From IMG/VR virus record IMGVR_UViG_2711768048_000007: DNA of 30,042 bases; one strand, 5' to 3'. Made by a program: the position numbers and the translations under genes. Below are positions 511 through 16,665 of the stretch, in pieces. Position 1 is the stretch's first letter. Each line of letters starts with the position of its first letter. This DNA comes from a virus. Taxonomy: Duplodnaviria > Heunggongvirae > Uroviricota > Caudoviricetes. Under the pieces are notes generated by a model. It did no database searches. It saw nothing but the letters and a program-made list of their open reading frames with translations, and was not told the DNA's origin.

Positions 511-1284
511 TTACAACTTAAAGAGTTTCGCTTGCCCTGGATTAACAGCTTCGACGTAGTTTTTGACCCCTATTCTGTGCGGCTCATAATTGCTTGAATA
601 GAAATCAATCAGGAAGTCACTCATTTTCTGAGATGTGACTTTCATAACTCCCTTACTCAAAGTTAAATTAAACACGCTAATCTTTGACGATGGTGCCTGA
701 GTTTTACTCATGTTGGCTTGATAACCAGATTTACGCATTGCCACTAGTGCTTCGTCGTAAGCCGCTTGTAATTGGGCCAAATCGTTTGACGAGATGATCA
801 CATCATCCATAAACACACTTAGCTTGAGATCATGATGTTTGTTCAATCGGCGTAGTAAGCTACCAAAATAACTTTTATCTAAGCAGAGGGTTGCAAGTAT
901 TGGAGATTGAACAAAACCAAAAGGGAGGACATGCTTATGTGGACTATGGGACAAGTTTCTTACAGTTGAAAATGTTGAGATTTCCCGCGCTTGAGAATAG
1001 GTGAAGTAGCTCTTTAGATCACGGGTGATACGACTACGGCTCGTTGACTGAAAAAATTGTTTAATATCAACAACGGCAAAAAAATCACTTTTTAAGTGTA
1101 ATCTGGCAGCTTTAAGATGCCCACCAGTTCTTAGATGGTAAAAATAGAGTGGCGGAATCCACTTGTTTCTGACAGCCTGAAGTATCTTCCCTCCGACTTT
1201 ACGTGCCTCAACGCTTGGGACATAAACCCAAACCCCGGGCTTAATCTCAAATTTATCTTCCCACCTTTGAACTTCTATTGTCAT
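511..1284 (-). CDS. compact reverse transcriptase (257 aa), family unassigned
   Basis: The translation carries RT palm motifs in the correct order: FFAVVDIKQFF (motif A with Asp), PFGFVQSPILATL (motif B-like) and SVFMDDVIIS (catalytic xxDD, FMDD variant). True ATG start, with a TAA two codons upstream in frame. Confidence 0.75.
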   Translation of the reverse strand: MTIEVQRWEDKFEIKPGVWVYVPSVEARKVGGKILQAVRNKWIPPLYFYHLRTGGHLKAARLHLKSDFFAVVDIKQFFQSTSRSRITRDLKSYFTYSQAREISTFSTVRNLSHSPHKHVLPFGFVQSPILATLCLDKSYFGSLLRRLNKHHDLKLSVFMDDVIISSNDLAQLQAAYDEALVAMRKSGYQANMSKTQAPSSKISVFNLTLSKGVMKVTSQKMSDFLIDFYSSNYEPHRIGVKNYVEAVNPGQAKLFKL

Positions 1285-1426
1285 GAGTTAAATTGTTGTA
1301 GTTGAAGGCCATGTTAAGAACGGCGTAAACCGCACCAACTAAGCCAACAAACGCGGTTGCGCATTTGAGCATAGCGGTGATCAGTTCAACACGCGCCTTA
1401 ACTAAGCCAAGTTCGTTTGTATCCAT
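1253..1426 (-). CDS. small membrane peptide (about 57 aa, one hydrophobic helix), upstream of and overlapping the RT gene
   Basis: GGAGG lies 8 nt upstream of the second ATG (MDTNELG...). Hydrophobic stretch LITAMLKCATAFVGLVGAVYAVL. The 3' end overlaps the RT start by 32 bp, suggesting translational coupling. The first in-frame ATG is at 1441. Confidence 0.5.
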   Translation of the reverse strand: MDTNELGLVKARVELITAMLKCATAFVGLVGAVYAVLNMAFNYNNLTHDNRSSKVGR

Positions 1427-1687
1427 AACTTGTTCCTCCATAGATACCTGACGTCTCTTAGCGCAAGCGCATGGCCCTAACTAAATAAAAAATAACAACC
1501 AGTTAGCCCAGAAAGCTTAACAAGTCGGCGTCCGATTACATGGCAATCAGGTAATCGGTCCGCAGTCGCAAAGCGACAAACTACATATCTACGGAGTGGG
1601 GATAAATCCCCGCTAACGTCAGGCATTGTTAATTTAACCTCAACTTATAGAAAAGTATAGTTTTAAATCATGTAGTTATGTCGCCAT

Positions 1688-1906
1688 TTAAATCGGCAAA
1701 CCCACCTGTTTAAATTTATGAGGATGCGGCTGAACCGGATTTGACTCTTTTGGCGTTGCAATCGAACGAACAAAAGTTTCATGGGTAACAAAAGTATGGC
1801 TGCAGTTAATGTTCTGGCACTGGTTGTAACGCTCTTTGGTCAATGAAGATACCTGAAAACTGCTGCGAGTATGGGCGGCACTTCCACACAGTGGGCAAAT
1901 CATCAT
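1688..1906 (-). CDS. ogr: Ogr-type late-gene transcription activator (zinc finger)
   Basis: MMICPLCGSAAHTRSS...YNQCQNINCSHTF gives the C-x2-C ... C-x4-C pattern of P2 Ogr. The start is chosen to give about 72 aa; the longest ORF begins at 1939. Confidence 0.85.
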   Translation of the reverse strand: MMICPLCGSAAHTRSSFQVSSLTKERYNQCQNINCSHTFVTHETFVRSIATPKESNPVQPHPHKFKQVGLPI

Positions 1907-1996
1907 TTTTCGAGTTCTCCCCATTTTTGCTAAATTCACAATAATGATATCGCATTATTCCATTTTTCAAACTTAAAAGTTCTCCATTGTGAAGAA

Positions 1997-3097
1997 TCAT
2001 TCCATTTCGAGATCATCAACCTTCACTTCAAGCTCAAGACTGGTCGTAAAACCATTATCCGGGCTGACGGTATGTGTCAGAGTCGTAATGGTCCATTCCG
2101 CATCATCTATCGGCTGTTTAAAGCCACTGACTTTCACTGGCATTTCCGTGTAGAGATCTGCCCGCCCTTCCGCCAGTTGTAGCGAGAATGACGCAACGCC
2201 GCGTTGCAGGCGTTCCCACTGCATTTTCGCTGCCCGTTCAGCGTTGCTCCGGTTGGCATAAGTGCGATTAAGTACCAGCACGTTTTCATCCGTACCCACC
2301 AGGTAATCGCCCTGCTTCGCTTCCAGCTCTTTCTTCTGCTTCTTAGTCCTGCGCTTACGCTTCACCGTGGTGCTTTCTTTCTTCGCGGGTTCGCGGGTAT
2401 GCAACCAGCTGGCAATTATGCCCGTATAGGCTCCGCGATCTGCCAGGGTAAAGCGGTGACTGTCGCCGTCCTTACGTGTGATAGTGATCACCGGCAGTGG
2501 TTTACCGCTGGCACTTTTGCCCTGTCCCTGCCGGATGAATAACAGATTGCCATTTTTCACCGACGCAATAGCACCGTACTGGCGCGCCAGCCGCATCAGA
2601 AAACTACCGTCACTCTCATTAGTCTGGTCTATATGCTCCACGAGCTTATCCGACAGGTCTTTACCCAGTACCATCTTCAGCTTGTGCCGCGCGGCTATCT
2701 CCTTCACCACTTCCCCAATGGTGGTCTTGTGCCACGATTTTTCACGGCGGGTATTCAGCGTTTCCCGAAAATCAGCACTTCGCGCCCGGATAGTCAGGCG
2801 GTCCGGTGCGCCAGTGTGTTCAATCTCGTCCACCGTGAATGCCCCTTTCGGGAAAAGCGGCTGCCCCTTCCAGCCCAGCGCCAGCGTAATGACCGCACCA
2901 CGGCGCGGCAGCACGATTTTCCCGTCGGCATCGTCCAGCTCCAGATCAAGCTGGTCTGCTTCAAAGCCCCGATTGTCCGTCAGAGTCAGACTCATCAGGC
3001 GGTTGTCCAGCACAGTGGTGATATCCCTGCCTGCAATACTGATGCTGAATGCGGGAGTTTTGTTGCCTTTGTTAAGCAGTTCAGAGCTGAAATTCAC
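1997..3097 (-). CDS. D: tail protein D (late control gene D family)
   Basis: 366 aa, lying between U and ogr as in P2. GTG start overlaps the U stop (GTGA). Confidence 0.85.
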   Translation of the reverse strand: MNFSSELLNKGNKTPAFSISIAGRDITTVLDNRLMSLTLTDNRGFEADQLDLELDDADGKIVLPRRGAVITLALGWKGQPLFPKGAFTVDEIEHTGAPDRLTIRARSADFRETLNTRREKSWHKTTIGEVVKEIAARHKLKMVLGKDLSDKLVEHIDQTNESDGSFLMRLARQYGAIASVKNGNLLFIRQGQGKSASGKPLPVITITRKDGDSHRFTLADRGAYTGIIASWLHTREPAKKESTTVKRKRRTKKQKKELEAKQGDYLVGTDENVLVLNRTYANRSNAERAAKMQWERLQRGVASFSLQLAEGRADLYTEMPVKVSGFKQPIDDAEWTITTLTHTVSPDNGFTTSLELEVKVDDLEME

Positions 3098-3579
3098 GAC
3101 AGCAGCCCTCCCACCGTTTTACTGATATCGCTTAAGGCAGACGTTGCCGTGCCCTGCAGATTATTCAGTTGCGCACTGAGATCACCGAACATATCGGACA
3201 GGGATTCATCCACCCGTTTGAGCGACAGGGTGAACTCAATCCGGCGCGGCATACCGTCGCGGAAAAACTCCGTTTTAGTCTGATTCAGTCCCTCAATCAC
3301 ATACATGCCATAAATCGTGCCGCTGCCTTCAATCAGTGGCCATGCTTTCCCCTGTTCTGCCATCTGCTCCAGTGCCAGCAACGACAGCCTGCCACCTGTT
3401 ATCTCCGGCATAAGAACACCGGAAAGCGTCAGCATGTCGTTGTCCGGTCCCAGAAACTGCGTGGACGGACGTCGGTTTACCCGGCTGTTTGCCGCATGTC
3501 GCCAGCTGCGTTGATACTGCAGTTCCTGATACGGAACGGTGCGCAGCATAAACACGTACAATCCCAGCACCATCATCAT
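3094..3579 (-). CDS. U: tail protein U
   Basis: 161 aa. ATG overlaps the T stop (ATGA). Sits at the P2 gpU position between T and D. Confidence 0.8.
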   Translation of the reverse strand: MMMVLGLYVFMLRTVPYQELQYQRSWRHAANSRVNRRPSTQFLGPDNDMLTLSGVLMPEITGGRLSLLALEQMAEQGKAWPLIEGSGTIYGMYVIEGLNQTKTEFFRDGMPRRIEFTLSLKRVDESLSDMFGDLSAQLNNLQGTATSALSDISKTVGGLLS

Positions 3580-6500
3580 GCGTCGTATCCCCCCTGATCG
3601 CTGTAGTTACTCCTGGCTTTTGCCTTCAGCCTGCGTTCACGTTCATCAAGCTGGCGGGCCACCTCCCGCGCAATATCCTGCGCACTTTGTCCTGGCTGCA
3701 TCTGAATGATGATCTGCGTCGGTGCCTCAATCCGGTGAACGGGCGGCACAGTGGCTGCACGACTCACCATCGCTTCGCCGCCTTTCGCGGGAAGTGCCAA
3801 AGGATGCAACGGTGGAAGCTCTGCAGGCGCGGCAGCAACGCCCATCATTCCGGCAACAACGGCAGCCAGTGCAGCTGTATTTCTCCGGCTGGTCACATTT
3901 GCCGGGCCGTTAACAATTTCCGGCCCGTTTTCACCGACGATGCCAAACTGCCCGCGCGGGATATAGCCGCCGCTGTCATACATCCCCGCAAAGCCATATC
4001 CCCATGATGGAAAACCACCCGATGGCATCATCACTTTACCGTCTGCATTCACCGTCGCAGGTTGCTGACGCGTCACGCTTTCCGGCAGTTTCGCCTTTGC
4101 AGCTTCTTTACTGACAATGCCGAGTTTATCCAGCAACCAGGAAACACCGGATTTCAGGGAGTCCAGCGGATGCATGACCATATTCAGCCCCTCCGCCAGA
4201 GCCTCCCCGAATCGTCGCCCCATTGCCGCTGCGCTCTGCAGTTCAGCAGAGGTCGACTTAACAGGCGTCAGCAGATCAGTAAACCAACCCCACAACGCCT
4301 GCACTTTGTCGCCAATCCACTGAAACACAGGCTTAAGTGGTTCGAATGCAGCACTGATGGGACCTGCCGACGCTTTGAATCCTTCCACCACGCCACCGAG
4401 AAATGCGGTGATGGGTTGCCAGTATTTCCAGACAACCAGCGCCACACCCGCCAGTGCAGTAACCACAAGACCTATCGGACTGAGCAGAGCACCTAACAGA
4501 CCAGATATGGCATACAGGGCAACGCGCAGCATCGCCAGCGGACCGGATGCCAGTACTCGCAGCACCGCGCCTGCGGCAGACAGTCCACCGCGTAGTGCTG
4601 CCAGTGGATTCATAAACATCACAGCAACAGCACGTAAACCGGATAATCCAGACCGCAACAGTGCAACCGGCACACCTGCTACAGTTTTCAGGACATTCCC
4701 CGTCAGTGATGCCGTGCGGCGCAAAGACGACAACGGCGCAGTAAGTAAACCTGCGGCGTTGCCCGATGAAGCAAGCCCGCGTCGCAGCAGTGCCAGTGGA
4801 GCGCCAGCTAACCAGGACAACGCGCTGCTGGTTCGTGTTACTGCTGCCGTAACGGAAGGTAACGTTTTGATACCCAGCACAGAGAATCCCAGACGGATGA
4901 CTGCCAGCGGCCCCAGCACTGCAGCCAGCGCCACCGCTAAGGTGCCGAGGCCTACGGTAACCGCAGCCACAACAGCCGCTACTTTCATCAGTGTGCCTGT
5001 CAGTTCCGGGTTAGCTTCCACCCAGCGGCGCAACGCTCCCGTGATGCTTTTCACCGTGTACAGAATATCCATCAGCGGCTGGCGCAGCGTTTCGCCCAGG
5101 CTGCTGAAGGTGTTCTGCGCTCCGGTTTTGACCAGCAACCACTGAGCAGAAAGTGAGTCTTTGTTGATGTCGGATTCTTTCTGCATGGAACCGAGCGCAT
5201 CATTGCCCGCTGTCAGTTTTAGCTGGCGCTGCAGTTCCGGAAGGTTGTTTGCCAGTTTCGCCGCGTCATCACCAAACTCTTTACCAAACAACATGGTCAT
5301 GGCAGACAGACGCTTGTCCTGCGGCAGTGCGTTCACCTTCTCCAGCACACGCTGGATAGTTCCCATCGCATCCTTCGTCATCTGCTTTTCAATCACTTCA
5401 GGATTGAGTTTCAGCAGATTCATCCCTTCAAAGAAACTCTTGCTTTGCATGGTGGCAATGGACAATTCACGCACCATCGCGTTTGCTGCACTGGCTGCAA
5501 CCTCCGGCGCAGCGCCCAGTGTCAGAAAGGTGGAACCCAGTGCCGCCGCTTTACGATAATCCAGACGGTCAGCCACACCGCCCAGACGTTGCATCACATC
5601 AATGATGTCCGCCCCTTTCGACATGGCGTTATCATCCAGATAGTTCAGCGCATCGCCGAGCTGTTCAATATTGCGGGTAGGTATTTTGTAGAGCTGGGCG
5701 ATTTTCCCCAGACTTTCTGACAGTTCATCCGCTGGCAGCTCAAAGGCTGTTGCCGCCTTTGCTGCCGTACTGGCGAAGGCCAGCAGGTCACGTTTCTGGT
5801 CTTCCCAGCTGTCGTCAGGGTTTGCGACGTTCATGCGCGCACCACCTTCAACCAGTGCAGCGAAGTCCACCGCACCGTTTTCCATCGGCAACTGTTCGCT
5901 GGCAGCCTTGATGGCATCCTGCATTTCATAAAAACGTGCAGTGCGGTTGCCATTATCGTCACGCAGACCATTGACCTGCTTTGCCACACCTTTCATGGCA
6001 TCTTCCATGCTGGTATAGCTTTTTACTGCCGCCATCACTGGCGCACCCATTGCCAGCCCTGCAGCCGTGGTGGTGGCTCCGGCACCTGCAATACGATCAC
6101 GCACCTCCAGCGAACGGGCATAACTGGCACGCGCTGCATTCATCCTGCGCTGAGCTTCCCCCAGTCGCTTCAGCCGCGCCTCCTGTTTCGAAAGTTCCTG
6201 GTTATAACGTGATGTTTCACGGGCTAAACGGGCAGTTGCTCCCGCATCGTCTTTCGCAGAAATTCCCGCCCGGTACAGTTCAGCACGCACAAGCGCCGTC
6301 TGCTGCTGCAGTTTTTTCTGGCGTTCTTCCAGGCGCTGAACAGCCAGCCGTTGACGGCCCAGAGCAACAACCTGACGTTGCGAAGGCGGCCCCATCGCTC
6401 CCAGTTCCTGACTGAGCAAATTTGCACGCTGGCGGGCATAGTTCAGCCTGTCGCCTAATTTCTGATTTTCTGCCTGCAGCTTTCGGAAGCTGTCCAGACT

Positions 6501-6653
6501 GCTCCCGGCCTGATCAAGCTGCTTTATTGCATCGCGGGATTTTTTGACAGCAGCAGCCAGTTCTCTTGAACTGGCCTGCGCAGATCGAAATGGGCGGGTG
6601 AGCTTGTCAACCGCATTAAGAATGACCTGCAGACGCAGGTTGTTATCACTCAT
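3576..6653 (-). CDS. T: tail tape measure protein
   Basis: 1025 aa, with an N-terminal coiled-coil region rich in Q/R/E/L/A and long Ala/Gly/Leu-rich hydrophobic repeats typical of tape measure proteins. Position matches P2 gpT. Confidence 0.9.
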   Translation of the reverse strand: MSDNNLRLQVILNAVDKLTRPFRSAQASSRELAAAVKKSRDAIKQLDQAGSSLDSFRKLQAENQKLGDRLNYARQRANLLSQELGAMGPPSQRQVVALGRQRLAVQRLEERQKKLQQQTALVRAELYRAGISAKDDAGATARLARETSRYNQELSKQEARLKRLGEAQRRMNAARASYARSLEVRDRIAGAGATTTAAGLAMGAPVMAAVKSYTSMEDAMKGVAKQVNGLRDDNGNRTARFYEMQDAIKAASEQLPMENGAVDFAALVEGGARMNVANPDDSWEDQKRDLLAFASTAAKAATAFELPADELSESLGKIAQLYKIPTRNIEQLGDALNYLDDNAMSKGADIIDVMQRLGGVADRLDYRKAAALGSTFLTLGAAPEVAASAANAMVRELSIATMQSKSFFEGMNLLKLNPEVIEKQMTKDAMGTIQRVLEKVNALPQDKRLSAMTMLFGKEFGDDAAKLANNLPELQRQLKLTAGNDALGSMQKESDINKDSLSAQWLLVKTGAQNTFSSLGETLRQPLMDILYTVKSITGALRRWVEANPELTGTLMKVAAVVAAVTVGLGTLAVALAAVLGPLAVIRLGFSVLGIKTLPSVTAAVTRTSSALSWLAGAPLALLRRGLASSGNAAGLLTAPLSSLRRTASLTGNVLKTVAGVPVALLRSGLSGLRAVAVMFMNPLAALRGGLSAAGAVLRVLASGPLAMLRVALYAISGLLGALLSPIGLVVTALAGVALVVWKYWQPITAFLGGVVEGFKASAGPISAAFEPLKPVFQWIGDKVQALWGWFTDLLTPVKSTSAELQSAAAMGRRFGEALAEGLNMVMHPLDSLKSGVSWLLDKLGIVSKEAAKAKLPESVTRQQPATVNADGKVMMPSGGFPSWGYGFAGMYDSGGYIPRGQFGIVGENGPEIVNGPANVTSRRNTAALAAVVAGMMGVAAAPAELPPLHPLALPAKGGEAMVSRAATVPPVHRIEAPTQIIIQMQPGQSAQDIAREVARQLDERERRLKAKARSNYSDQGGYDA

Positions 6654-6779
6654 CGTTGGCCCCGCTTCTCTGAATCGCTTTATACCGCCATTCCAGCACT
6701 TCGGTCAGCGGCATAACGTCAGTAACGGATGGCGGCCAGTGAAAAATGGTGGCGATATCTGCCACCAGATCGTCAACCG

Positions 6780-7082
6780 TCAGGCTGTCGGTAAACCGGC
6801 AAGCACCGACTTCTTCAACAAAAAAGTGACAACCTCAACCGACATGGCAGTGAGATCTGCCGGGTCCATCTCTGCAATTTCCTGTGCAGTCAGTGCCGGA
6901 CTGGAGATGCGGGGGATCACGGTCATCATCGCGTTTACATCCATATCCATAATGGCCTGCAGGCGTGTACCGCGCAGCGCACCGGACTGCGGTTTACGCA
7001 GCACAATTTCGGTGATTTCTGTTTTACCGCGCTTGATGGGGGTATCCAGTTGAATGGTCTTTTCAGTCTGCTTATCGCTCAT
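6780..7082 (-). CDS. E: tail assembly chaperone E; E+E' is made by a -1 frameshift
   Basis: 100-aa ORF directly upstream of T. It contains the slippery heptamer TTTTTTG (minus strand; plus-strand CAAAAAA at 6819..6825) 13 codons before its stop, as in P2 E/E'. Confidence 0.8.
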   Translation of the reverse strand: MSDKQTEKTIQLDTPIKRGKTEITEIVLRKPQSGALRGTRLQAIMDMDVNAMMTVIPRISSPALTAQEIAEMDPADLTAMSVEVVTFLLKKSVLAGLPTA

Positions 7083-7136
7083 TTTGCTGTCCTGTCAATT
7101 GGGTTCTGGCGCGGTATCCCGCGCCGTTCAGATATA

Positions 7137-7652
7137 TCAGAGGCCGAGGGCGTTGCGGTGCGCTTCCATCAGGTCCACACCGTCCACAATTTCCACCATG
7201 TTGATAAGGTCCACTTCATAGAGCACCTCACCATTGATGGTCAGCTTCGCGTAGCTGTTGGTACTGGTCACTTTGGTGGTGTTGCTTTCGCCCGTCTTCC
7301 ACTCGCCGGAATCCACTTCTTTGTGACGTCCACGCACGACAAGCTCCACGGCCTGCACTTCCCCGGTATCGTCACGCTGAATAGAGCCGGTAAAGCGCAG
7401 CTGGATGCCATCCACCGTGGCTTTACCCATCTGTTTAAACAGCAGCAATTCAGTACCACCAATGGAAAATTCTGTGTCCAGCGCACTGTCATCAAGCCCC
7501 AGATCCACATCCACCGCACCCGGCATTCCGCCGCCGCGATACTTCTCATATTTGCGGGTAAATTTCGGCAGCGTCAGCGACTCAACGATCCCCTGCCAGT
7601 TGTTCCCGTCGTTAAACAGGTTCAGGTGTTTTAATTTGCGTGGTAATGCCAT
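7137..7652 (-). CDS. FII: tail tube protein FII
   Basis: 171 aa, immediately downstream of the sheath gene, with an AGGGGA Shine-Dalgarno. Same size and position as P2 FII. Confidence 0.85.
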   Translation of the reverse strand: MALPRKLKHLNLFNDGNNWQGIVESLTLPKFTRKYEKYRGGGMPGAVDVDLGLDDSALDTEFSIGGTELLLFKQMGKATVDGIQLRFTGSIQRDDTGEVQAVELVVRGRHKEVDSGEWKTGESNTTKVTSTNSYAKLTINGEVLYEVDLINMVEIVDGVDLMEAHRNALGL

Positions 7653-7661: not shown

Positions 7662-8765
7662 TTACGCGCTGACCTGGCTGGCGAAATTCACCAGGTACTG
7701 ATCGGTGATGCGCTGACGCAGCATCAGGTTTTCAAGTGGCGGCACTGGCGTGTAGTCGTAGTCGATGGTGAGTTTTCCGGCTTTCAGCGTGTCTTTGTCG
7801 TTCACCGACTCATCCAGCCAGCAATCACCACCAATGAGATAGCCCTGACTGACCAGGCTGCGCATTTTGGCGCGGATACCTTCGATAATGTCGCGGGCCA
7901 GCGACGGGTTAAGCGGTTTATCCACCGCCCACATGTGTGCTTCTGCCATCGTGTCCATCAGCACCTGCGCCGTGCGGGTGTAGTTTTCGAAGGCAAAGAG
8001 CGGGTCATCACTCAGGCAGCGGGAACCCCAGAAGCGGAAACCGTCTTTACGCACAAGCGTGGTGACGTCGTTCTGGTTCAGCAGACCTGCATCGGTTGCC
8101 GGGTCCTGCAGATCCCAGAACACATCTGCAGAAATTCCGGTGACACCGTTCACGCCCACGTTGGACAGGCTTTTGTGCCATCCGGTCTGCTCGTCAATTT
8201 TGGCGCGCAGACCAAGCGCACGGGCGGTGGCATATGCCGTTGCTTCGGCATTCAGCACCGTGTCCCAGCCAGTAAAGTCAGGCCAGATCAGCATCCCTTC
8301 GCGCTGGCTGAAGTTTTCACGGTAAGTGATCGCCTCCTGCACTGTCTTGCAGCCATACGCTGACAGGTAAGCAAATCCACGCAGGCTTTGCGCCACGCTC
8401 AGCAACTCAGTAGCTACCGCCTTGGTGTCGTGGCCTGGCACGCCGAGAATGCGCGGTTTAACGCCGAGCTGTGACTGGGCAGATAACAGGGCTTTCATAC
8501 CTGTTTTTTTACCTTCAGCAGTCACTGCGCCGATGATATTGGTCGTGGTTTCGTCTTCCGTTTCACCCTGCGGCACACGCACAACAATGGTCACGGGTTT
8601 TGCCTGGTCAGCGATGGCATCCAGCGAACGGGCCAGAGTACCTGACTCACCCGCTTTACCGCTGGCAGTCAGCACATCAGTGATCAGCACGGGTTTATTA
8701 AGAGGAAACATTTTTGCATCGGCATCATCGCCCGTGCAGACCATACCCACGATGGCGGTGCTCAT
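7662..8765 (-). CDS. FI: contractile tail sheath protein FI, lacking about 23 N-terminal codons
   Basis: 367 aa beginning [11 protein letters not shown], which corresponds to an internal segment of P2 FI (as I recall its sequence); in this window the upstream reading frame is closed by a stop within nine codons. Confidence 0.8.
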
Positions 8766-9702
8766 TCCCCAGTGCCGCCGCCAGTTCGTTCAGTGTATCC
8801 AGTGCAGCAGGTGCAGAACCCACCATTCCTGCAATCGCCGATTTCACAAAAGCCGTAGTGGCAATCTGTGTATTGTTGACCGACTGCGCCGCCGTGGGGG
8901 CTGTTGGCGTTCCGGTGAGTGCCGGACTCGACAACGGTGCTTTTAGTGCCAGCGCATTGTTAATGGTGGTACTGAAATTCGGATCATTGTTAATGGCTGC
9001 GGCTATTTCTTTCAGCGTGTCCAGCGTGGCTGGCGCACCATTAATAAGGGCCGTCAGTGCCGCCTGTACAAACGCAGTGGTCGCAACCTGCGTGGTATTA
9101 TTCCCCGCCGCTGGCGTTGGCGCTTTGGGGGTTCCGGTAAATGTCGGGCTGGCTTTTGGCGCGTACTGTGAATGCGGGTCCGGTGCGGCAAGATGTTTTG
9201 CCATCTGATCATCCGCGTAAACCTTCAGCTCCAGTGCCTTGTCATCCACATACTTGCGGGTTGCCAGCACTACAGCAGGGTCGATTTTCAGGGTGATATT
9301 GTCCGTGCTGCTGGTAATCAGCACCATGCGCACGGTCTGAGTGCGCCCGCTACCTTCAGCCAGTTGCGGCTTATAGCTTTCCGGGCAGTTGCCCACGGCA
9401 ATCAATGCCCCGGACTCATCAAACAAGCCCACTTCACGTATCCACCAACCGCCCTCGTTTTCAGGGATCACCTGTTCGGCAATAATCTGGCTGCTGTTCT
9501 GCGGGTCGATATAAAGCATATTCAGCGCAGCCCGGCGTTTCTCATTTACCAGTGCCGTCTGCTTTGCGTCCGGCGTTGGCAATACTCCACCGCCATCGCC
9601 CACCGCCATATGGGTAATTTTTAGCGGCACACCGAGCGCGGCGGCGCTGGCAAGTTTCGCCGCGCCAATATCCGTCAGCAGGGTATAAAATTTTGTGCTC
9701 AT
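8725..9702 (-). CDS. H: tail fibre protein H, N-terminal half only (truncated and fused to the FI 5' region)
   Basis: N-terminus [26 protein letters not shown]...MAVGDGGG and two TGTPxAPT...NNTQxATTAFV repeats are typical of P2-type fibre N-termini. The ORF stops after ...[20 protein letters not shown], and that tail is the FI start region read in another frame. No receptor-binding C-terminal domain. Confidence 0.7.
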
Positions 9703-9712
9703 GGATTCACTC

Positions 9713-10186
9713 TCATTGTGTCAATAACATGGACCGCCCCGCCTTCATGCGCGGTGCCACCCGGCTGATGGCCCAGCGGGCGTCACGCCACAAATCACCG
9801 CTTGCTTCCGCCAGTTCCTCGCCCCGCTTCACACCGGACGCCGTGGCGTCATAGTCCTGGTATCGTTCGTTGAGCATGGCGCGTGCCCAGCAGTAAACCG
9901 CGTTGAAATAGTGCTGAATGCGCTCACTTTTGCCGTCCAGCTGTTCCGCCGGAACTTCTGCCAGCGAGGCATACCCCAGCATCTGCTGGCGTCTGCGAAA
10001 CTCATACAGCTCTGCGTTGACCTCCGAAATTGCCGACAGCGCAACCTGCTTTAAACGCGGCTGCGTCACCGTGCCGTCAGTGCGCATCACGCTGCGAAAC
10101 TCCGACAGGTCCACATCAGGCCAGAACGGCGTATTCCTGATGATTTCCGCCTGTTCCGGTGCCTGTTCTGGCGCAACAAACTTCAT
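9713..10186 (-). CDS. L: head completion/stabilisation protein L
   Basis: NTPFWPDVDLSEFRSVMRTDG... has the gpL-like signature. Start set at the ATG with an AGGAGA Shine-Dalgarno (MKFVAPEQ...); the longest ORF begins with GTG at 10249. Confidence 0.75.
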   Translation of the reverse strand: MKFVAPEQAPEQAEIIRNTPFWPDVDLSEFRSVMRTDGTVTQPRLKQVALSAISEVNAELYEFRRRQQMLGYASLAEVPAEQLDGKSERIQHYFNAVYCWARAMLNERYQDYDATASGVKRGEELAEASGDLWRDARWAISRVAPRMKAGRSMLLTQ

Positions 10187-10281
10187 GCTGCTTTCTCCTG
10201 AAATAGAGGGCGGTGGACGGGGTTTTGATGTGGCAGTGCCTTTCGCCACCCCGTGCCGCCCGTGCGCGGGGGCACGTTCTG

Positions 10282-10932
10282 TCAGCGGCTGTCATTGCGC
10301 AGTCTGCGCTCCAGCTGCTGTTTGTCTTTTTTCACGCCACAGCGGGGATCGAGCTGTAACGCATGGTTGAGATGATTAAGGGCGGAAGCCGGGTTGTTTT
10401 CACTCAGGACAGCGCCAATCGCTTTATGCAGACGCGCCCGTGACTGGTCCGGCATATCCAGACCGTCTGTCAGCTCCAGCGTCTGCAGCAACAGATCGGC
10501 ATCAAAGCCGGTGGCGGCAAGCATTGCGCTCTGCGCCGCGTCTGCCATTTCCTCTGCCAGCACGGTCTGCACGTTGCGGTTACCCAGCGGCATCACCCAG
10601 CCATGACGCAGGGCATGACGCCCGATCTCCAGCGCCCCTGCATAATCTCCGGCATCAATGCGCCACAGCATCACGTACATCAGCACGTCATCCTGTTGAG
10701 CGCCTCCGGCAGCCAGAACGCCCTCCGCCCAGGCGGCATATTTCGGCAGCAGCTCCACCTTGATTTCCGCTTTTTTGACCGTGGACTGAACGCCCTTGAG
10801 ACGGCGGCGGTCTTCCGCCAGTTGCAGCAGCATCAGGTCATAGCCCGACGCGTGGCGAACACTGCCACCCTCGCGAGCGGCCTGTTCAGCCTGAACGCGC
10901 AGGCGATGCTGCCGTGCGGGACTCAGGCTCAT
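10282..10932 (-). CDS. M: terminase endonuclease (small) subunit M
   Basis: 216 aa, immediately downstream of the capsid gene, P2 gpM position. Confidence 0.8.
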   Translation of the reverse strand: MSLSPARQHRLRVQAEQAAREGGSVRHASGYDLMLLQLAEDRRRLKGVQSTVKKAEIKVELLPKYAAWAEGVLAAGGAQQDDVLMYVMLWRIDAGDYAGALEIGRHALRHGWVMPLGNRNVQTVLAEEMADAAQSAMLAATGFDADLLLQTLELTDGLDMPDQSRARLHKAIGAVLSENNPASALNHLNHALQLDPRCGVKKDKQQLERRLRNDSR

Positions 10933-10935
10933 GAA

Positions 10936-11994
10936 TTACGCTCCGGTTTCTGCTGCGGCGGCGCTGAAGTCACCAATCTGGATGTTTTCCACCAGTGCAG
11001 CGCAGCGATAGTCCTCAACCACATAGGCTTCGTTAACGGATTCAAAATTTTCAATCCGGTCACGTTTCGGGTTGTCGATAACTGAACGGCGGCGGGTATC
11101 TTCCTGCCAGTAGATGGACAGGTTATCCAGACGGGTGATCAGCAGCGCATTCGGCGGGAAGAACGGCGCACGCACCGCCTGCAGGCCACCCATGCGTTTC
11201 TGACTGATGATCATATCGGCAGCCAGTTTTTCACTGTTTTCCTGCTCTTTGTTGACCAGCGGGAAATACTTGTCAGACAGCAGTTCACGACCGCAAATCA
11301 CCACCAGATCGTCATCGTCCTGGTAGACCACATCGATAAGCTCATTGACGGCATCCATCACTACGGCGTCCAGGTTGGCATATTCGCCACCTTTCCCGAC
11401 TTTCACCGCGCCCGGTGTGGTTTCACCGCCCGTGGTGGTGCTGCCCATGACGTGATCCGGTGCATCCTCACGGATTTTCTGCAGCCAGCCTTTGTTCACA
11501 TCCTGCAGCAGCGGGTTTTCGCTACGGTTGGAGGTTTTCGCACGCTTCACGCCGTTAAAGCCGATCATGATGCGGTCCAGAGCCTGACGTTTCACGATGG
11601 CGTTACGGATACGCACCTGGAAATCCTGAAACTTCGCCCACAGGTCCAGCTTCGCGTAGGTCAGCACCGTGTCAAAGTTGGTCTGTTCGCATTTGTATTC
11701 CACATCGACCATCAGCGTCGGATCGACAGGTTCTCGCTCTTTCGCGGTGGTATCAGTGGTTCCGGCAATGGTGCTGCCAACACCCAGCCCCAGCAACTGA
11801 CCAGACTGCTCAGTCACTGGCGTGACGTTAATCAGCGTCAGGAAAGAGGCGGACTGCTGGATCTGGTCTTCCAGCGTCTGCTGCACGGACGGCTCTACGG
11901 TGAACTTGCTGGACAGTTCTTCAACTGCCACACCGTTCAGACGCGCCAGCTGCTGCAGGTAAGCGTTAAAAGCAAAGCGGGTATTCTTCTTCAT
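10936..11994 (-). CDS. N: major capsid protein N
   Basis: 352 aa, between the scaffold and terminase-small genes; size and position match P2 gpN. Confidence 0.9.
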   Translation of the reverse strand: MKKNTRFAFNAYLQQLARLNGVAVEELSSKFTVEPSVQQTLEDQIQQSASFLTLINVTPVTEQSGQLLGLGVGSTIAGTTDTTAKEREPVDPTLMVDVEYKCEQTNFDTVLTYAKLDLWAKFQDFQVRIRNAIVKRQALDRIMIGFNGVKRAKTSNRSENPLLQDVNKGWLQKIREDAPDHVMGSTTTGGETTPGAVKVGKGGEYANLDAVVMDAVNELIDVVYQDDDDLVVICGRELLSDKYFPLVNKEQENSEKLAADMIISQKRMGGLQAVRAPFFPPNALLITRLDNLSIYWQEDTRRRSVIDNPKRDRIENFESVNEAYVVEDYRCAALVENIQIGDFSAAAAETGA

Positions 11995-12010
11995 CGGGTT
12001 TTGTGCTCCA

Positions 12011-12844
12011 TCAGCAATTGGTCAGAGTGTCAGCGGGGGCGTTACCGCCTGTTGCACGCTGGCGGTAGTCCTGGCGGCTGTCTTCATGACTCAGCTTATT
12101 CACCAGTTCGTTAAAGGCGGTCTGCTGTGCCTGCAGGGCAGTCTCCAGCTCAGACAGACGTTCTTCCTGCTCAGACAGGGATTTTTCGGTGCGTGCGCTC
12201 AGGTTTTGCTGCTCAGTGGCGACCAGCTCCACGGCCTTATGCTCATCAGAGAACCGGGCATCGTCGGACTGCTCTTTTTTGGTAAACAGCGCCGTGACAC
12301 GGGCAAACAGGGACGGTTTGTCCTCCTGGATTTCTTCCAGTTCGATCACCGTTTCCTCTGCGGCGGTAAAGAGATTGGCGGGATTCTGCTTGCGGTTTGC
12401 CAGCGGGTTATGGGCTGCACTGGCGCTGAATGTCAGCATTTCCGTACCCAAACTGGCAGGGTCATCAGTGGCAGCCAGGCCGACCAGGTAGGCTTTGCCC
12501 GTATCAGCGAACTTCGGGCTGACTTCCATAGAGGTGAATAATTTCTGGCCTTTTTTCACCAGTTCCACCAGGGACTCCGTTGGCTCAACGTCGGCATACA
12601 GCGCCATCTTGCCTGCCAGCGGGCCTTCCGTGATTTCTTCAGCAAACAGCGCCGTCACCTTGCCGTAACGGTTAAAGGTGCTGTCCGGGAGATAAGACTT
12701 GATGTGCTCAAGGTTAATCAGCGCGGTATACACCGCCGGGTTGTAGCTGGCTGCCATCTGTTCCAGCCATTCACGCTGGATTTCGCGTCCGTCGGTGGTG
12801 GCACCTTCCACCCCGATGCGAAAACGCTTTGCTTTCACTGTCAT
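12011..12844 (-). CDS. O: capsid scaffolding protein O
   Basis: 277 aa, acidic and coiled-coil rich, first gene of the leftward late operon and divergent from P. Confidence 0.85.
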   Translation of the reverse strand: MTVKAKRFRIGVEGATTDGREIQREWLEQMAASYNPAVYTALINLEHIKSYLPDSTFNRYGKVTALFAEEITEGPLAGKMALYADVEPTESLVELVKKGQKLFTSMEVSPKFADTGKAYLVGLAATDDPASLGTEMLTFSASAAHNPLANRKQNPANLFTAAEETVIELEEIQEDKPSLFARVTALFTKKEQSDDARFSDEHKAVELVATEQQNLSARTEKSLSEQEERLSELETALQAQQTAFNELVNKLSHEDSRQDYRQRATGGNAPADTLTNC

Positions 12845-12986
12845 GAGCCGTGCTCCGTTAGAAATAACTTACTGGAGCCTTATGGTTGCGGTGATGGGGG
12901 CAGTGAAACAATGCGCGGTATTTGTACCGACAACCACACAAACCGCAGGCGGGGAAAGCCTTCATTCAAGGCTGTAGGTTTGTGCC
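12845..12986. promoter_or_regulatory. divergent late promoter region between O and P, with an Ogr-type TGT-N12-ACA site
   Basis: TGTaccgacaaccacACA at 12923..12940 fits the TGT-N12-ACA dyad of P2/P4 late promoters, centred about 87 bp upstream of the O start codon. Confidence 0.5.
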
Positions 12987-14753
12987 ATGAACACCACACT
13001 GACACCCGCAGATCTCGATCCCCGTCGGCAGGCCATGCTGCTGTACTTTCAGGGATACCGCGTAGCCCGCATTGCTGAAATGCTGGGCGAGAAAGTTGCA
13101 ACCGTTCACAGCTGGAAGAAACGCGACAAGTGGGGTGACTATGGGCCGCTGGATCAGATGCAGCTCACCACCGCCGCACGTTACTGCCAGCTCATTATGA
13201 AGGAGCACAAAGAAGGGAAAGATTTCAAAGAAATTGACCTGCTGGCGCGCCAGTCGGAGCGCCACGCGCGGATCGGCAAGTTTAACAATGGCGGCAACGA
13301 AGCCGACTTAAACCCTAACGTCGCCAACCGCAACAAAGGCCCGCGCCGTCAGCCGGAAAAGAATGTTTTCACCGATGAACAGATAGAGAAACTGGAAGAA
13401 ATCTTCCATTCCTCCATGTTCAACTACCAGCGCCACTGGTGGGAAGCCGGAAAAACCAACCGCATCCGCAACCTGCTGAAGTCACGCCAGATCGGCGCGA
13501 CCTTTTACTTTGCCCGTGAAGCCCTGATTGACGCCCTGCTTACCGGACGTAACCAGATTTTCCTTTCTGCCAGTAAGGCACAGGCTCACGTCTTTAAGCA
13601 GTACATCATCGACTTCGCCAAAGAAGTCGAGGTGGAGCTGAAAGGCGATCCGATGGTGCTTCCTAACGGGGCCACGCTTTACTTCCTCGGCACCAATGCC
13701 CGCACGGCGCAGAGTTACCACGGCAACCTGTATCTGGATGAATATTTCTGGATACCGAAATTCCAGGAGTTGCGCAAAGTGGCTTCCGGTATGGCTATTC
13801 ACAAGAAATGGCGACAAACCTATTTTTCCACGCCATCCAGCCTGACCCACAGTGCTTATCCGTTCTGGTCCGGTGCGCTGTTCAACCGTGGACGCAACAA
13901 AGCTGACAAGGTGGACATCGACCTGTCCCACAGCAATCTGGCCCCCGGCCTACTGTGCGCAGACGGGCAATACCGCCAGATAGTCACCGTGGAAGATGCG
14001 GTGCGCGGCGGCTGTAACCTGTTCGACCTCGACCAGCTGCGCATGGAGTACAGCCCGGACGAATACCAGAACCTGCTGATGTGCGAGTTCGTGGACGATC
14101 TCGCGTCCGTGTTCCCGCTCAGCGAACTGCAGGCGTGCATGGTGGACAGCTGGGAAGTCTGGACCGACTTTCATGCACTGGCCCTGCGCCCGTTTGGCTG
14201 GCGCGAAGTGTGGATCGGTTATGACCCGGCAAAAGGTACGCAGAACGGCGACAGTGCCGGATGCGTGGTGGTGGCTCCGCCAGCCGTGCCGGGCGGTAAG
14301 TTCCGCATTCTTGAGCGTCACCAGTGGCGCGGGATGGACTTCCGCGCCCAGGCTGACGCCATCAAAAAACTGACCGAACAGTATAACGTGACCTATATCG
14401 GTATCGACTCAACCGGCGTCGGTCACGGGGTTTACGAGAACGTGAAAGCGTTTTTTCCTGCCGTCAGGGAGTTTGTCTATAACCCCAACGTTAAAAACGC
14501 CCTGGTACTCAAGGCCTACGACATTATCAGCCACCGCCGTCTGGAGTTTGACGCCGGGCACACCGACATTGCGCAGTCATTTATGGCAATCCGTCGCGCT
14601 ACCACTGCCAGTGGCAACCGCCCGACCTATGAAGCCAGCCGCAGCGAAGAAGCCAGCCATGCCGATCTGGCCTGGGCAACAATGCACGCACTGTTTAACG
14701 AACCGCTGCAGGGCGAGTCCGCCAATACCAGCAATATTGTGGAGATTTTTTGA
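12987..14753 (+). CDS. P: terminase ATPase (large) subunit P
   Basis: 588 aa, divergent from O; its stop overlaps the Q start (TGATG). Matches P2 gpP in size and position. Confidence 0.9.
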   Translation: MNTTLTPADLDPRRQAMLLYFQGYRVARIAEMLGEKVATVHSWKKRDKWGDYGPLDQMQLTTAARYCQLIMKEHKEGKDFKEIDLLARQSERHARIGKFNNGGNEADLNPNVANRNKGPRRQPEKNVFTDEQIEKLEEIFHSSMFNYQRHWWEAGKTNRIRNLLKSRQIGATFYFAREALIDALLTGRNQIFLSASKAQAHVFKQYIIDFAKEVEVELKGDPMVLPNGATLYFLGTNARTAQSYHGNLYLDEYFWIPKFQELRKVASGMAIHKKWRQTYFSTPSSLTHSAYPFWSGALFNRGRNKADKVDIDLSHSNLAPGLLCADGQYRQIVTVEDAVRGGCNLFDLDQLRMEYSPDEYQNLLMCEFVDDLASVFPLSELQACMVDSWEVWTDFHALALRPFGWREVWIGYDPAKGTQNGDSAGCVVVAPPAVPGGKFRILERHQWRGMDFRAQADAIKKLTEQYNVTYIGIDSTGVGHGVYENVKAFFPAVREFVYNPNVKNALVLKAYDIISHRRLEFDAGHTDIAQSFMAIRRATTASGNRPTYEASRSEEASHADLAWATMHALFNEPLQGESANTSNIVEIF

Positions 14754-15787
14754 TGGGAAAGAGTAAGAAGAACCGCGCTGCGTCGACGAAACAGATCCAG
14801 CATAAAAGCCAGACTTCAGCCGAAGCATTCAGCTTCGGTGATCCCGTTCCTGTTCTGGACCGCCGCGAACTGCTGGACTATGTGGAATGCGTACAGATGG
14901 ATCGTTGGTACGAGCCGCCTGTGAGTTTCGACGGACTGGCGCGAACCTTCCGCGCCGCCGTGCATCACAGCTCACCGATTGCAGTGAAGTGCAACATTCT
15001 GACCAGCACCTACATCCCTCACCCGCTGCTCAGCCAGCAGGCTTTTTCGCGTTTTGTACAGGACTATCTGGTTTTTGGTAACGCCTACCTGGAGAAACGC
15101 ACGAACCGCTTCGGTGAAGTTATCGCCCTTGAGCCTGCACTGGCAAAATACACCCGACGCGGGTTAGACCTTGATACCTACTGGTTTGTGCAATACGGCA
15201 TGACTACGCAGCCGTATCAGTTCACGAAAGGCAACATTTTTCATCTGATGGAACCGGACATCAACCAGGAGATCTACGGCCTGCCTGGTTATCTTTCTGC
15301 CATTCCGTCAGCTCTGCTCAACGAGTCCGCCACGCTGTTCCGCCGCAAGTATTACATTAACGGCAGTCATGCAGGCTTCATCATGTACATGACCGATGCA
15401 GCGCAGAACCAGGAGGATGTGAACAACCTCCGCAATGCGATGAAAAGCGCCAAAGGTCCTGGTAACTTCCGTAACCTGTTTATGTACTCGCCTAACGGTA
15501 AAAAGGACGGGCTTCAGATTATCCCGTTGTCAGAAGTGGCGGCGAAGGATGAGTTCCTGAATATCAAGAACGTGAGCCGGGACGACATGATGGCGGCGCA
15601 TCGTGTGCCGCCACAAATGATGGGGATAATGCCTAATAATGTCGGGGGGTTTGGGGATGTGGAGAAGGCCAGTCGCGTATTTGTACGTAATGAATTAACG
15701 CCCTTGCAAAAAAGGCTACAAGAGCTGAACGACTGGCTGGGCGAAGAAGTGATTAAATTTACGCCCTATATTCTTTCAGAAGAATAA
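14753..15787 (+). CDS. Q: portal protein Q
   Basis: 344 aa from the ATG overlapping the P stop, the same length as P2 gpQ. Confidence 0.9.
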   Translation: MGKSKKNRAASTKQIQHKSQTSAEAFSFGDPVPVLDRRELLDYVECVQMDRWYEPPVSFDGLARTFRAAVHHSSPIAVKCNILTSTYIPHPLLSQQAFSRFVQDYLVFGNAYLEKRTNRFGEVIALEPALAKYTRRGLDLDTYWFVQYGMTTQPYQFTKGNIFHLMEPDINQEIYGLPGYLSAIPSALLNESATLFRRKYYINGSHAGFIMYMTDAAQNQEDVNNLRNAMKSAKGPGNFRNLFMYSPNGKKDGLQIIPLSEVAAKDEFLNIKNVSRDDMMAAHRVPPQMMGIMPNNVGGFGDVEKASRVFVRNELTPLQKRLQELNDWLGEEVIKFTPYILSEE

Positions 15788-15795: not shown

Positions 15796-16494
15796 TTATT
15801 TGTTTCTTCTTTGTTCACGCCTTGTCTTGGCTTCGATAAGGCGTTGAGGTTCAGTGTAAAGCCGTTCTAAAAAAAGATAGGTAAAATCTTCAAGATCCTC
15901 AGCAGCAGCTTTATCCAAAATACCTTCATGCGCTCCATCATTTCCGTCATCTTTAACGCATTCAGCTAGTTCCCTTAAAGCTTCAGGCAGTAGATGATTA
16001 TCAAATAACCACTCCATTCTTAACCCTAGGCTTCTCCTTATTTTTTGCGCAGGCCCTTGCTCCCCATCAGGAAGAAGTCCTTTTGTGGCATAATCAAGGC
16101 AAAGCCTAAACATGGTTGCTGCTGCATTATAACAACCTATAGCCAAACATTTCGCCCCTTCCTCATATGCACTATTGATATGCTCAGGTAAGAACTCTGG
16201 TGGCTCCTCTACTGCTAAGTCTGCCGGTGATATAGGCCTAACAACCTCTGCAACTTCCTTTAAGCCGAATATTCCACTTTCCCAATTATAGCCATCTAAA
16301 GTTTTATTTTTCGTTAAAGGTCTGCAAAGAAACATTGTCGTTTTATGACACTCTCGGCAAACACAATAGACCTCGTACTCGTATGTTTTACCCCCGCCCA
16401 ATGCATTGTAAACCCTAGTGCAATTCAGCCCATTAACATCAAACGCTATTTTTTGTGATCCACATCGTGGACAGTCATCCACTAACATAACCAT
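15796..16494 (-). CDS. hypothetical cargo protein: N-terminal zinc ribbon plus C-terminal helical domain
   Basis: 232 aa. Cys pattern CPRCG...C...CxCRECH; C-terminal motif KDDGNDGAHEG. Strong GGGAGGAG Shine-Dalgarno. Lower GC than the phage backbone. Lies between portal and cos, convergent with Q (8-bp gap). Confidence 0.65.
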   Translation of the reverse strand: MVMLVDDCPRCGSQKIAFDVNGLNCTRVYNALGGGKTYEYEVYCVCRECHKTTMFLCRPLTKNKTLDGYNWESGIFGLKEVAEVVRPISPADLAVEEPPEFLPEHINSAYEEGAKCLAIGCYNAAATMFRLCLDYATKGLLPDGEQGPAQKIRRSLGLRMEWLFDNHLLPEALRELAECVKDDGNDGAHEGILDKAAAEDLEDFTYLFLERLYTEPQRLIEAKTRREQRRNK

Positions 16495-16595
16495 GTCAAT
16501 TACTCCTCCCTATGAAAAAAATGAGTTGAAAAATTGAATATTCACGACTTAAAAAGCTAGCCTATTTAACACCATAATTTCATTAATTCAACCAT

Positions 16596-16630: not shown

Positions 16631-16665
16631 TTTATGTAGTGGTTTTCATGCGTCTGCATGACATA

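Follow-up and report, generated by a model that had tools for sequence, protein, structure and literature searches.

Phages P2 and 186 are complete, plaque-forming phages, and the element described here was compared with them by gene content. Its 186-type features are CI (Phage_CI_repr and CI_C domains), CII (CP76), Fil, a Dam-like methylase and the A replication endonuclease, and it also has, like 186, an Ogr/B-type late activator and TGT-N12-ACA late promoter elements. A LexA box followed by a DinI-like gene lies where 186 carries tum. At the nucleotide level, the late modules of two Peduoviridae, Escherichia phage 500465-1 (Wadgaonvirus, NC_049342) and Klebsiella phage 4LV2017 (Elveevirus, NC_047818), are 95-99.8% identical to those of the window, by which we mean the whole stretch of 30,042 nt that was analysed. 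The genes of both phages are arranged as in P2 (Q P O N M L X Y K lysABC R S V W J I H G FI FII E T U D ogr), but unlike the window they are complete genomes with other immunity and integrase regions and other cargo. The prophage of E. coli C2 (NZ_CP010117.1, 4746-4779 kb) shares with the window the ssrA site, the gene order, 97-100% identity over every retained segment, and a cargo consisting of a DinI-like gene, a DUF4145 gene and an RT with a small ORF. In contrast to the window, it keeps a 5.16-kb L-to-I segment and a 2.67-kb H-to-FI segment with an invertible fibre region, and its int-to-att cargo genes are different.

Two other E. coli prophages of the same family, those of IAI39 and ECCNB20-2, resemble the window element in having been inactivated by deletion or insertion with most genes intact. 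The P2-like prophage of IAI39 has IS26 insertions in the terminase gene as well as in the H/G region, a lesion that differs from that of the window. The ECCNB20-2 prophage, located at ssrA, has a dam-to-lysB deletion in which head and replication genes were lost and tails were kept, approximately the reverse of the window element. More generally, 'grounded' or cryptic prophages form a described class (PMC6379469, PMC7744054), and genes for lytic functions are preferentially lost from incomplete prophages (PMC7744054).

In the window, the 3' end of ssrA is the insertion point of a 26.3-kb P2/186-family prophage in an E. coli chromosome. The two att core copies (358-395 and 26630-26667) form a 38-nt exact direct repeat with ~26.3 kb between them. 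The late genes of the prophage lie on the minus strand, and Pfam assignment of the called genes recovered the core genes of the P2 type, arranged as in P2 (Q, P / O, N, M, L ... FI, FII, E, E', T, U, D, ogr). The boundaries and retained modules are as follows.

40-402: ssrA (tmRNA gene), by ARAGORN and Rfam
358-395, plus strand: att core copy 1, inside the ssrA 3' end; one prophage boundary
1688-7652, minus strand: rest of the former FI operon, intact by gene calls and Pfam; 99.0% identical to C2, no gaps
1688-1906, minus strand: ogr
1997-3097, minus strand: D
3094-3579, minus strand: U
3576-6653, minus strand: T
6646-6765, minus strand: E'
6780-7082, minus strand: E
7137-7652, minus strand: FII
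10282-15787, M, N and O on the minus strand, P and Q on the plus strand: head and packaging module, intact
10282-10932, minus strand: M
10936-11994, minus strand: N
12011-12844, minus strand: O
12845-12986, no strand assigned: divergent P/O intergenic region; no late-promoter upstream boxes are left except the two here (TGT-N12-ACA, 12923 and 12981)
12987-14753, plus strand: P
14750-15787, plus strand: Q
17778-25477, no strand assigned: 186-type early/replication/immunity region, intact, which also holds a 62-aa gene and the DinI-like gene
18254-18269: LexA box
18364-20778: A
20775-21692: dam
22920-23429: CII
23462-23704: apl-like
23807-24457: CI
24461-25477: int
26630-26667, plus strand: att core copy 2, the other prophage boundary, adjoined by int

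Colinearity with classified Peduoviridae genomes at 95-100% identity places the element in this family, and the att repeats, together with a tyrosine integrase gene (24461-25477) beside the immunity repressor gene (CI, 23807-24457), identify its integrated form. Apart from the tmRNA, an Rfam scan of the window found nothing. Comparison with the intact relatives bore out the first-pass annotation in that head, terminase, portal, tube, tape-measure, regulatory and replication genes are all kept. The sheath gene had been listed among them, but its N-terminal 23 residues are missing. As a separate observation, a P2 cos 19-mer had no match in the window at ≤3 mismatches, and a candidate cos-like GGCGTGGCGGGGA motif was found by eye in a conserved non-coding block at ~16611-16623.

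In an alignment with the intact prophage that C2 also carries at ssrA, the window shows exactly two gaps and is otherwise colinear, and the flanks are 97.1%, 100% and 99.0% identical. Both gaps recur in alignments to phages 500465-1 and 4LV2017. The same locus is intact in a related strain, and two deletions set the window apart, as the earlier reading of missing modules implied. The features at these deletions are the following.

9713-10186, minus strand: L' (head-completion gene L), the first 143 of the 154 L codons followed by 14 codons of the gene I 3' end in another frame; 157 aa
9759-9761, minus strand: junction 1, L codon 143 joined to the last 60 nt of gene I; ~5,158 bp missing
9702-9761, minus strand: relic of baseplate gene I (last 20 codons), I residues 182-201, 100% identity
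8725-9702, minus strand: H' (tail-fibre gene H), codons 1-313 of ~500 plus 12 wrong-frame FI codons; 325 aa
8762-8764, minus strand: junction 2, H codon 313/314 joined to FI codon 24; 3-bp (TGA) microhomology
7662-8765, minus strand: FI' (sheath gene), FI residues 24-390 without codons 1-23; 367 aa instead of 390

Deletion 1 (~5.16 kb) removed the last 11 L codons, X, the holin and lysozyme genes, lysA/B/C, R, S, V, W, J and all of I except 60 nt. The microhomology at junction 1 is 3 bp (GGT), or 4 bp when compared with the C2 parent. L' covers positions 1-131 of the 139 in Pfam Phage_GPL, and the native ribosome-binding region of H is still present within the gene I relic. The stop of the L-type ORF at 9713 and the H ATG 10 bp further on at 9702 were correctly located by the first-pass annotation. 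However, L is not intact: L' continues after codon 143 into gene I in another frame. The annotation had also described X through I as absent; the queried proteins from X to J indeed have no tblastn match in the window, but gene I is not wholly absent because its last 60 nt remain, read out of frame by L'.

Deletion 2 (~2.67 kb) removed the H codons beyond 313, the two genes for tail-fibre assembly, the invertible segment together with the invertase gene, the FI promoter and FI codons 1-23. The DNA missing at this junction amounts to ~2,666 bp against C2, 2,789 bp against phage 500465-1 and 1,177 bp against phage 4LV2017. Codons 1-313/314 of H' match H of the intact relatives, the H' region is identical to the C2 prophage at 1000 of 1000 nt, and H' carries the Phage_tail_fib N-terminal domain (Pfam). 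These data confirm that the H ORF runs for about 313 H codons and then through 12 codons of FI 5' DNA in another frame, and that the element lacks G, the C-terminus of H and, ahead of FI, both the variable region and the promoter. FI had been proposed to start at an internal position. FI' does correspond to FI residues 24-390, but its ATG is not a native internal start; it was created by the junction, where AATGA of H is joined to GCACC of FI. No well-spaced Shine-Dalgarno sequence was found at this start. The pyocin sheath PA0622 aligns with FI from end to end, and the residues missing from FI' align with its N-terminal arm, suggesting that the FI' sheath would lack the arm needed for the inter-subunit mesh.

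With proteins of an intact relative as tblastn queries, X, holin, lysozyme, lysA, lysB, R, S, V, W, J, G, the invertase and the inverted fibre genes had no match anywhere in the window, in agreement with the earlier impression from its ORFs that the missing module does not lie elsewhere in the element. What tblastn leaves of the damaged genes is L 1-143, I 182-201, H 1-314 and FI 24-390. Because the virion and lysis gene set is incomplete, the element is a defective P2-like prophage. In addition, of the four Ogr-dependent late promoters with TGT-N12-ACA boxes (P_P, P_O, P_V and P_F), only the predicted P/O boxes remain, and the boxes before V (P_V) and before FI (P_F) in intact relatives map to deleted DNA. 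The remainder of the former FI operon is now without its own promoter, and a terminator scan between L' and FII gave nothing above background. The remaining tail genes would then be transcribed only by read-through from P_O.

Other classes of element were considered. A phage satellite (P4-like or capsid-forming PICI-like) was rejected, as all retained segments are 97-100% identical to and colinear with a full phage, and the tail genes (tube, tape-measure, U and D) are kept, unlike in satellites without tail genes. Moreover, Pfam, PADLOC and PHROGs scans of the non-core ORFs revealed no satellite-type families such as Sid/Psu/Delta, an own primase or an own small-capsid module. A tailocin (R-type pyocin-like) would show the opposite pattern, whereas here heads and packaging are kept and baseplate, fibre and lysis genes are lost.

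Both junctions are direct joins of non-homologous sites with a 3-bp overlap, and the chance of an overlap of ≥3 bp at both is ~0.0026. We consider it very likely that two microhomology-mediated deletions, by illegitimate recombination or replication slippage, occurred in the ssrA prophage of one E. coli lineage, and that the element is a recently grounded prophage carried clonally, its architecture neither designed nor selected. In this mechanism, the first deletion would have joined L codon 143 in the wrong frame to what is left of I (60 nt), at the cost of X, the whole lysis cassette, R and S (tail completion), V, W, J and I (baseplate) and the late promoter P_V. The second would have joined H codon 313 to FI codon 24, again out of frame, at the cost of the fibre's receptor-binding end, its assembly chaperones, the late promoter P_F and the invertible fibre segment along with the invertase.

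The deletions might instead have been produced by a site-specific or transpositional enzyme, either by action of the fibre-region invertase on its crossover site or by an IS causing adjacent deletions. The Cin/Gin-type invertase and the invertible H/tfa segment of the intact siblings lie exactly in the region lost by deletion 2, and in the IAI39 relative the 3' end of H and G were lost through IS26. However, the crossover repeats of an intact relative (L001, 19684-19710 and 21514-21540) lie 96 bp beyond the left breakpoint (19588), for which reason invertase-mediated deletion was rejected; the right breakpoint is also far off, inside FI. IS-mediated deletion was likewise rejected because neither junction contains IS sequence or an IS end, each being a direct phage-to-phage join; the IAI39 lesion is a different one. 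An enzymatic origin is very improbable.

The junctions were also found in public assemblies. The L', H' and FI' proteins are encoded on at least 24, at least 10 and at least 18 contigs, respectively (NCBI, Logan and ENA assemblies), and the junction-carrying contigs match the window at 99.3-100% identity; the longer of them show 0-1 differences per 7-20 kb. These data bear on whether the junctions are misjoins or collapsed repeats of a draft assembly, the true prophage being intact. The exact match to the window is indeed a draft contig (L004), and several P2-like prophages per E. coli genome are common (median 2-3 matching places) and can confuse assemblers. Against this, identical junctions occur in at least 18-24 contigs from independent pipelines and sources (NCBI isolates, Logan, ENA metagenomes), contigs of up to 267 kb cross them, and the overlaps are 3 bp with no long repeats. 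We exclude misassembly as extremely unlikely, because identical junctions are present in at least 18 near-identical public contigs. Although both flanks are present in more than 1,000 of the 5,426 complete E. coli genomes, searches with the 1.95-kb region and two 141-bp junction probes found neither junction in any of them, and exact 34-mers of both junctions were absent from GTDB species-representative genomes and JGI metagenome contigs. Among the contigs encoding L' or FI', no single-deletion intermediate was seen, and every contig long enough carries both junctions; it is possible that the two deletions were one single complex event. A short metagenome scaffold (L009) has junction 1 with 5 nearby synonymous differences, which hints that the deleted form may not be strictly clonal.

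The first-pass annotation had regarded the junctions as unusually tidy for random decay. This is not supported, as each of the four endpoints falls within a coding sequence, neither gene fusion is in frame, L has lost its C-terminus and FI its N-terminal 23 residues, and the related prophages of IAI39 and ECCNB20-2 show quite different lesions. Junction 1 does lie near gene ends, as had been claimed for both junctions, but at junction 2 the left end has no gene boundary closer than 568 nt. Three of the four endpoints are ≤70 nt from a gene boundary, for which the chance is ~0.07, not significant even with a threshold picked post hoc. Nor is the continuous late operon a sign of tidiness, since any internal deletion in a block of same-direction genes leaves one. 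Nothing indicates anything other than normal prophage decay.

Selection might nevertheless have kept the doubly deleted element, as a non-lytic island of superinfection immunity and anti-phage cargo or as a helper-dependent head-maker borrowing tails and lysis from a co-resident P2-like phage. The remaining genes, among them CI, int, A and the whole head module, are all intact, and the cos-like site is kept as well; the element is present in many isolates; its cargo (the RT pair, the DUF4145 gene and the int-adjacent ORF) sits in known P2 accessory/defence hotspots (10.64898/2026.02.27.708500); and without lysis genes the cost of induction is gone. Interactions with other prophages can mobilise defective ones (PMC2669165), and the preferential loss of lytic functions (PMC7744054) points the same way. 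However, because the carriers are nearly identical, the intact genes reflect recency and not demonstrable purifying selection. Moreover, both fusions are out of frame and the damaged head-tail connector gene L speaks against a working head-donor design, satellite-type hijacking genes are lacking, the content being a mere subset of a phage, and the form is missing from the 5,426 complete genomes. Maintenance by selection is very unlikely. Equally doubtful is the more specific proposal that the deletions gave a stably kept, non-killing element, retained for immunity and its accessory genes, perhaps still excising, replicating and filling heads, and movable by a co-resident P2-like phage that supplies tails and lysis, like a capsid-forming satellite in the making.

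Under the preferred reading of recent microhomology deletion, the element is predicted still to repress and would probably still excise and replicate, and heads would probably be made and filled from P_O and P_P. There is no baseplate and therefore no tails would be expected; there is no holin, endolysin or spanin and therefore no particles would be released. This agrees with the earlier prediction that the element would neither build a baseplate nor lyse. A defective prophage of this sort is an already known kind, and the locus is properly annotated as a P2/186-family prophage that is defective and contains three pseudogenes (L', H' and FI'). It should be treated neither as an inducible phage nor as a new architecture, and its importance beyond annotation is small. 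It offers a clean, datable example of early decay, with two microhomology deletions and the other genes intact, for which an intact same-site sibling permits exact reconstruction. It may also serve as a natural control for studies of prophage 'grounding' or of the stabilisation of P2-type accessory/defence cargo in defective elements.

As for the positions of the cargo, the RT and its small ORF lie beside ogr, the ORF beside int is 356 aa long, and the DUF4145 gene lies between A and the portal gene.

The element is a P2/186-type prophage with two deletions, recent and clonally carried, and is of a kind that is already known. It occupies 26.3 kb between a 38-nt piece of the ssrA 3' end (358-395) and an exact second copy of this piece (26630-26667). 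The features are as follows:

40-402, plus strand, ssrA (tmRNA)
1688-1906, minus strand, late gene ogr
1997-3097, minus strand, late gene D
3094-3579, minus strand, late gene U
3576-6653, minus strand, late gene T
6646-6765, minus strand, late gene E'
6780-7082, minus strand, late gene E
7137-7652, minus strand, late gene FII
7662-8765, minus strand, FI-type ORF (FI')
8725-9702, minus strand, H-type ORF (H')
9713-10186, minus strand, L-type ORF (L')
10282-10932, minus strand, late gene M
10936-11994, minus strand, late gene N
12011-12844, minus strand, late gene O
12987-14753, plus strand, P
14750-15787, plus strand, Q
15796-18312, accessory genes and cos-like motif, followed by the 186-type early region
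18364-20778, A, early region
20775-21692, Dam-type methylase, early region
between the methylase and CII, DUF2732 and DUF5347 genes, early region
22920-23429, CII, early region
23462-23704, apl-like gene, early region
23807-24457, CI, early region
24461-25477, integrase, early region

When proteins from an intact relative were compared with the window by tblastn, the only matches were to L (residues 1-143 of 154), I (182-201), H (1-314 of 502) and FI (24-390); X, holin, lysozyme, lysA, lysB, R, S, V, W, J, G, the invertase and the inverted fibre genes had no match anywhere in the window. The missing module is thus not located elsewhere in the element. Breakpoints were mapped by alignment to three intact relatives, Escherichia phage 500465-1, Klebsiella phage 4LV2017 and the prophage of E. 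coli C2, the last of which was the most informative and shares the ssrA site with the prophage in the window. Except for two gaps, the window was colinear with all three, and the retained blocks were 97.1%, 100% (the H fragment, 1000/1000 nt) and 99.0% identical to the C2 prophage. At junction 1 (9759-9761), L codon 143 is fused to the final 60 nt of gene I with the loss of about 5,158 bp, after which the L frame continues for 14 codons out of frame relative to I and then stops, yielding an L' of 157 aa versus 154 aa for normal L. At junction 2 (8762-8764), H codon 313/314 is fused to FI codon 24, with a loss of ~2,666 bp relative to the C2 prophage, 2,789 bp relative to 500465-1 and 1,177 bp relative to 4LV2017. 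Base-level alignment revealed a 3-bp overlap at each junction, GGT at junction 1 and TGA at junction 2. Upstream of H', the native sequence is retained, since the 3' end of gene I was spared. The ATG of FI' is a product of junction 2, where AATGA of H meets GCACC of FI and FI Val24 becomes Met; upstream of it is just GGGG, one base away and probably too near for normal Shine-Dalgarno spacing. Together, the alignments and the tblastn search bear out the structure proposed in the first-pass annotation, which had reported the lysis, tail-completion and baseplate genes as missing and the fibre gene as truncated, placed the L end at 9713 and the H start at 9702, and read the final 12 codons of the H frame as FI DNA in a different frame; the H frame has 325 codons.

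In the intact relatives, TGT-N12-ACA late-promoter elements precede V and FI, and both lie within the deleted DNA, so the FI promoter is indeed gone, as had been suggested; in the window such elements survive only in the divergent P/O region. With the V- and FI-side elements lost, H', FI', FII, E, T, U and D would be transcribable only by read-through from P_O, and a terminator scan detected no terminator-like site above background between L' and FII. Since the baseplate (V, W, J, I) and tail-completion (R, S) genes are gone, tube and sheath polymerisation would be unable to start; likewise, with holin, endolysin and spanin all lost, the element would be incapable of lysing its host cell. FI and the R-pyocin sheath protein PA0622 are homologous over their entire length (E = 1e-68). 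Deletion of the N-terminal strand abolishes function in the T6SS sheath, a homologous structure (PMC5924787), and FI' lacks exactly that N-terminal arm. Of the fibre, H' retains just the baseplate-attachment domain plus a portion of the shaft, and L' is missing the C-terminal 11 residues of the normal head-completion protein. The genes for immunity, integration, replication and head packaging look intact in length and in identity to the C2 prophage, which makes repression, excision, replication and head filling plausible on sequence grounds.

The chance of at least 3 bp of microhomology is ~0.05 at a random join and ~0.0026 at both junctions, which supports an origin of the deletions by microhomology-mediated illegitimate recombination or by slippage during replication. 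The fibre-region invertase would be the obvious suspect for deletion 2, but its 27-nt crossover repeats (19684-19710 and 21514-21540 in phage 500465-1) lie 96 bp beyond the left breakpoint, and the right one is within FI. Base-level inspection found no IS sequence at either junction.

Across NCBI isolate assemblies, Logan assemblies and ENA metagenome assemblies, L' (157 aa) was present in at least 24 public contigs, FI' (367 aa) in 18 and H' (325 aa) in 10, and carriers of the junction-specific proteins are labelled E. coli in NCBI. The fetched carrier loci were 99.3-100% identical to the window, with 0-1 differences in those of at least 7 kb. Misassembly was ruled out for practical purposes, as identical junctions occur in independent assemblies at non-repetitive 3-bp overlaps. 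Among 5,426 complete E. coli genomes, none contains a sequence crossing either junction, and over 1,000 of them have both flanks in the normal arrangement; exact 34-mers of both junctions were not found in GTDB species representatives or JGI metagenomes. Therefore, the intact order, and not the deleted one, is the norm of this lineage. Carriers of the deleted form are a small, nearly clonal set of isolates.

One carrier contig (GCA_016987915.1, DADGPD010000085.1) lacks 1 nt of a GGG run at the equivalent of window position 8733, 30 nt past junction 2, which brings H' in frame with FI', and gene callers give an H-FI fusion product; the loss is either a later mutation or an error in sequencing. 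A 760-bp metagenome scaffold (ENA ERZ28601511 scaffold_12295), corresponding to 9459-10218, has junction 1 and encodes an identical L' protein, with five synonymous differences near the junction. It may represent either a carrier of this deletion that has diverged slightly or a chimera of metagenome assembly.

The earlier hint that the junctions are "unusually tidy for random decay" found no support. All four deletion endpoints lie within genes (37, 59, 568 and 70 nt from the nearest boundary), and both fusions are out of frame. Positions within 70 nt of a gene boundary make up 29% of this compact region, giving p ~0.07 for three of four endpoints so placed, with a threshold picked post hoc. 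Moreover, because the late genes are co-oriented, any internal deletion would leave them "in one operon". In a relative in E. coli IAI39, both the H/G region and the terminase gene contain IS26, a lesion unrelated to that in the window. A prophage at ssrA of E. coli ECCNB20-2 (NZ_CP034787.1, 1142-1162 kb) is 99.8% identical in its int/CI/early region; it has lost replication, cos and all head genes through a deletion from inside dam to inside lysB, but still has a complete, more divergent tail and baseplate module, and is roughly a mirror image of the element in the window. The lesion pattern in this prophage and its relatives has the appearance of unselected decay.

Taxonomically, the element belongs to the P2-like phages (Peduoviridae) as a defective member, with Wadgaonvirus and Elveevirus phages and the C2 prophage as its closest relatives and a regulatory region of the 186 type. 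A satellite was rejected, as the content of the element is strictly a subset of a phage and no distinct hijacking genes are present, and so was a tailocin, for which the retention pattern is the reverse. The literature amply documents defective P2-like prophages and preferential loss of lytic functions (PMC7744054, PMC6379469). A recent survey described P2-like elements that are defective and carry conserved defence cargo in the hotspots that also hold cargo here (10.64898/2026.02.27.708500). The least ordinary reading, in which the grounded element would be kept for immunity and cargo or be movable by a helper phage, is very improbable, and we found no positive evidence for it here.

The accessory block (15796-18312, minus strand) lies between gene A and the portal gene, a known P2 defence hotspot near cos. 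Its first feature is a single LexA-box-like palindrome (18254-18269), closely followed by a 62-aa gene and a DinI-like gene; then come an 86-103-aa ORF and a 203-aa ORF (phrog_26391, function not assigned). The position of the 62-aa and DinI-like genes corresponds to that of tum in phage 186. A conserved non-coding block has a cos-like GGCGTGGCGGGGA motif at ~16611-16623, and the accessory block ends with a 232-aa DUF4145 protein weakly matching PD-T7-4 (E = 1e-6). Between ogr and the ssrA att site (511-1441, minus strand), a 257-aa short reverse transcriptase (Pfam RVT_1; best PADLOC match retron-type RT_VI, E = 6.6e-18) comes after a 57-62-aa ORF that overlaps it, a pair also present in the C2 sibling; no known retron RNA was detected in an Rfam scan. 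A 356-aa ORF (25474-26544, plus strand) occupies the space between int and the att site and overlaps the integrase stop codon; it had no Pfam or PADLOC match and matched solely phrog_17460 (unknown function). The C2 sibling has other genes here, indicating a variable cargo slot. Beyond the prophage (26834-30042, minus strand) is a 980-aa AIDA/Ag43-type autotransporter ORF with AIDA repeats, pertactin and beta-barrel domains. It begins directly in the repeats without a signal-peptide region, and the sequence immediately preceding it encodes the C-terminus of an IS transposase (rve-type sequence); an IS insertion thus seems to have removed the 5' end of this adhesin gene.
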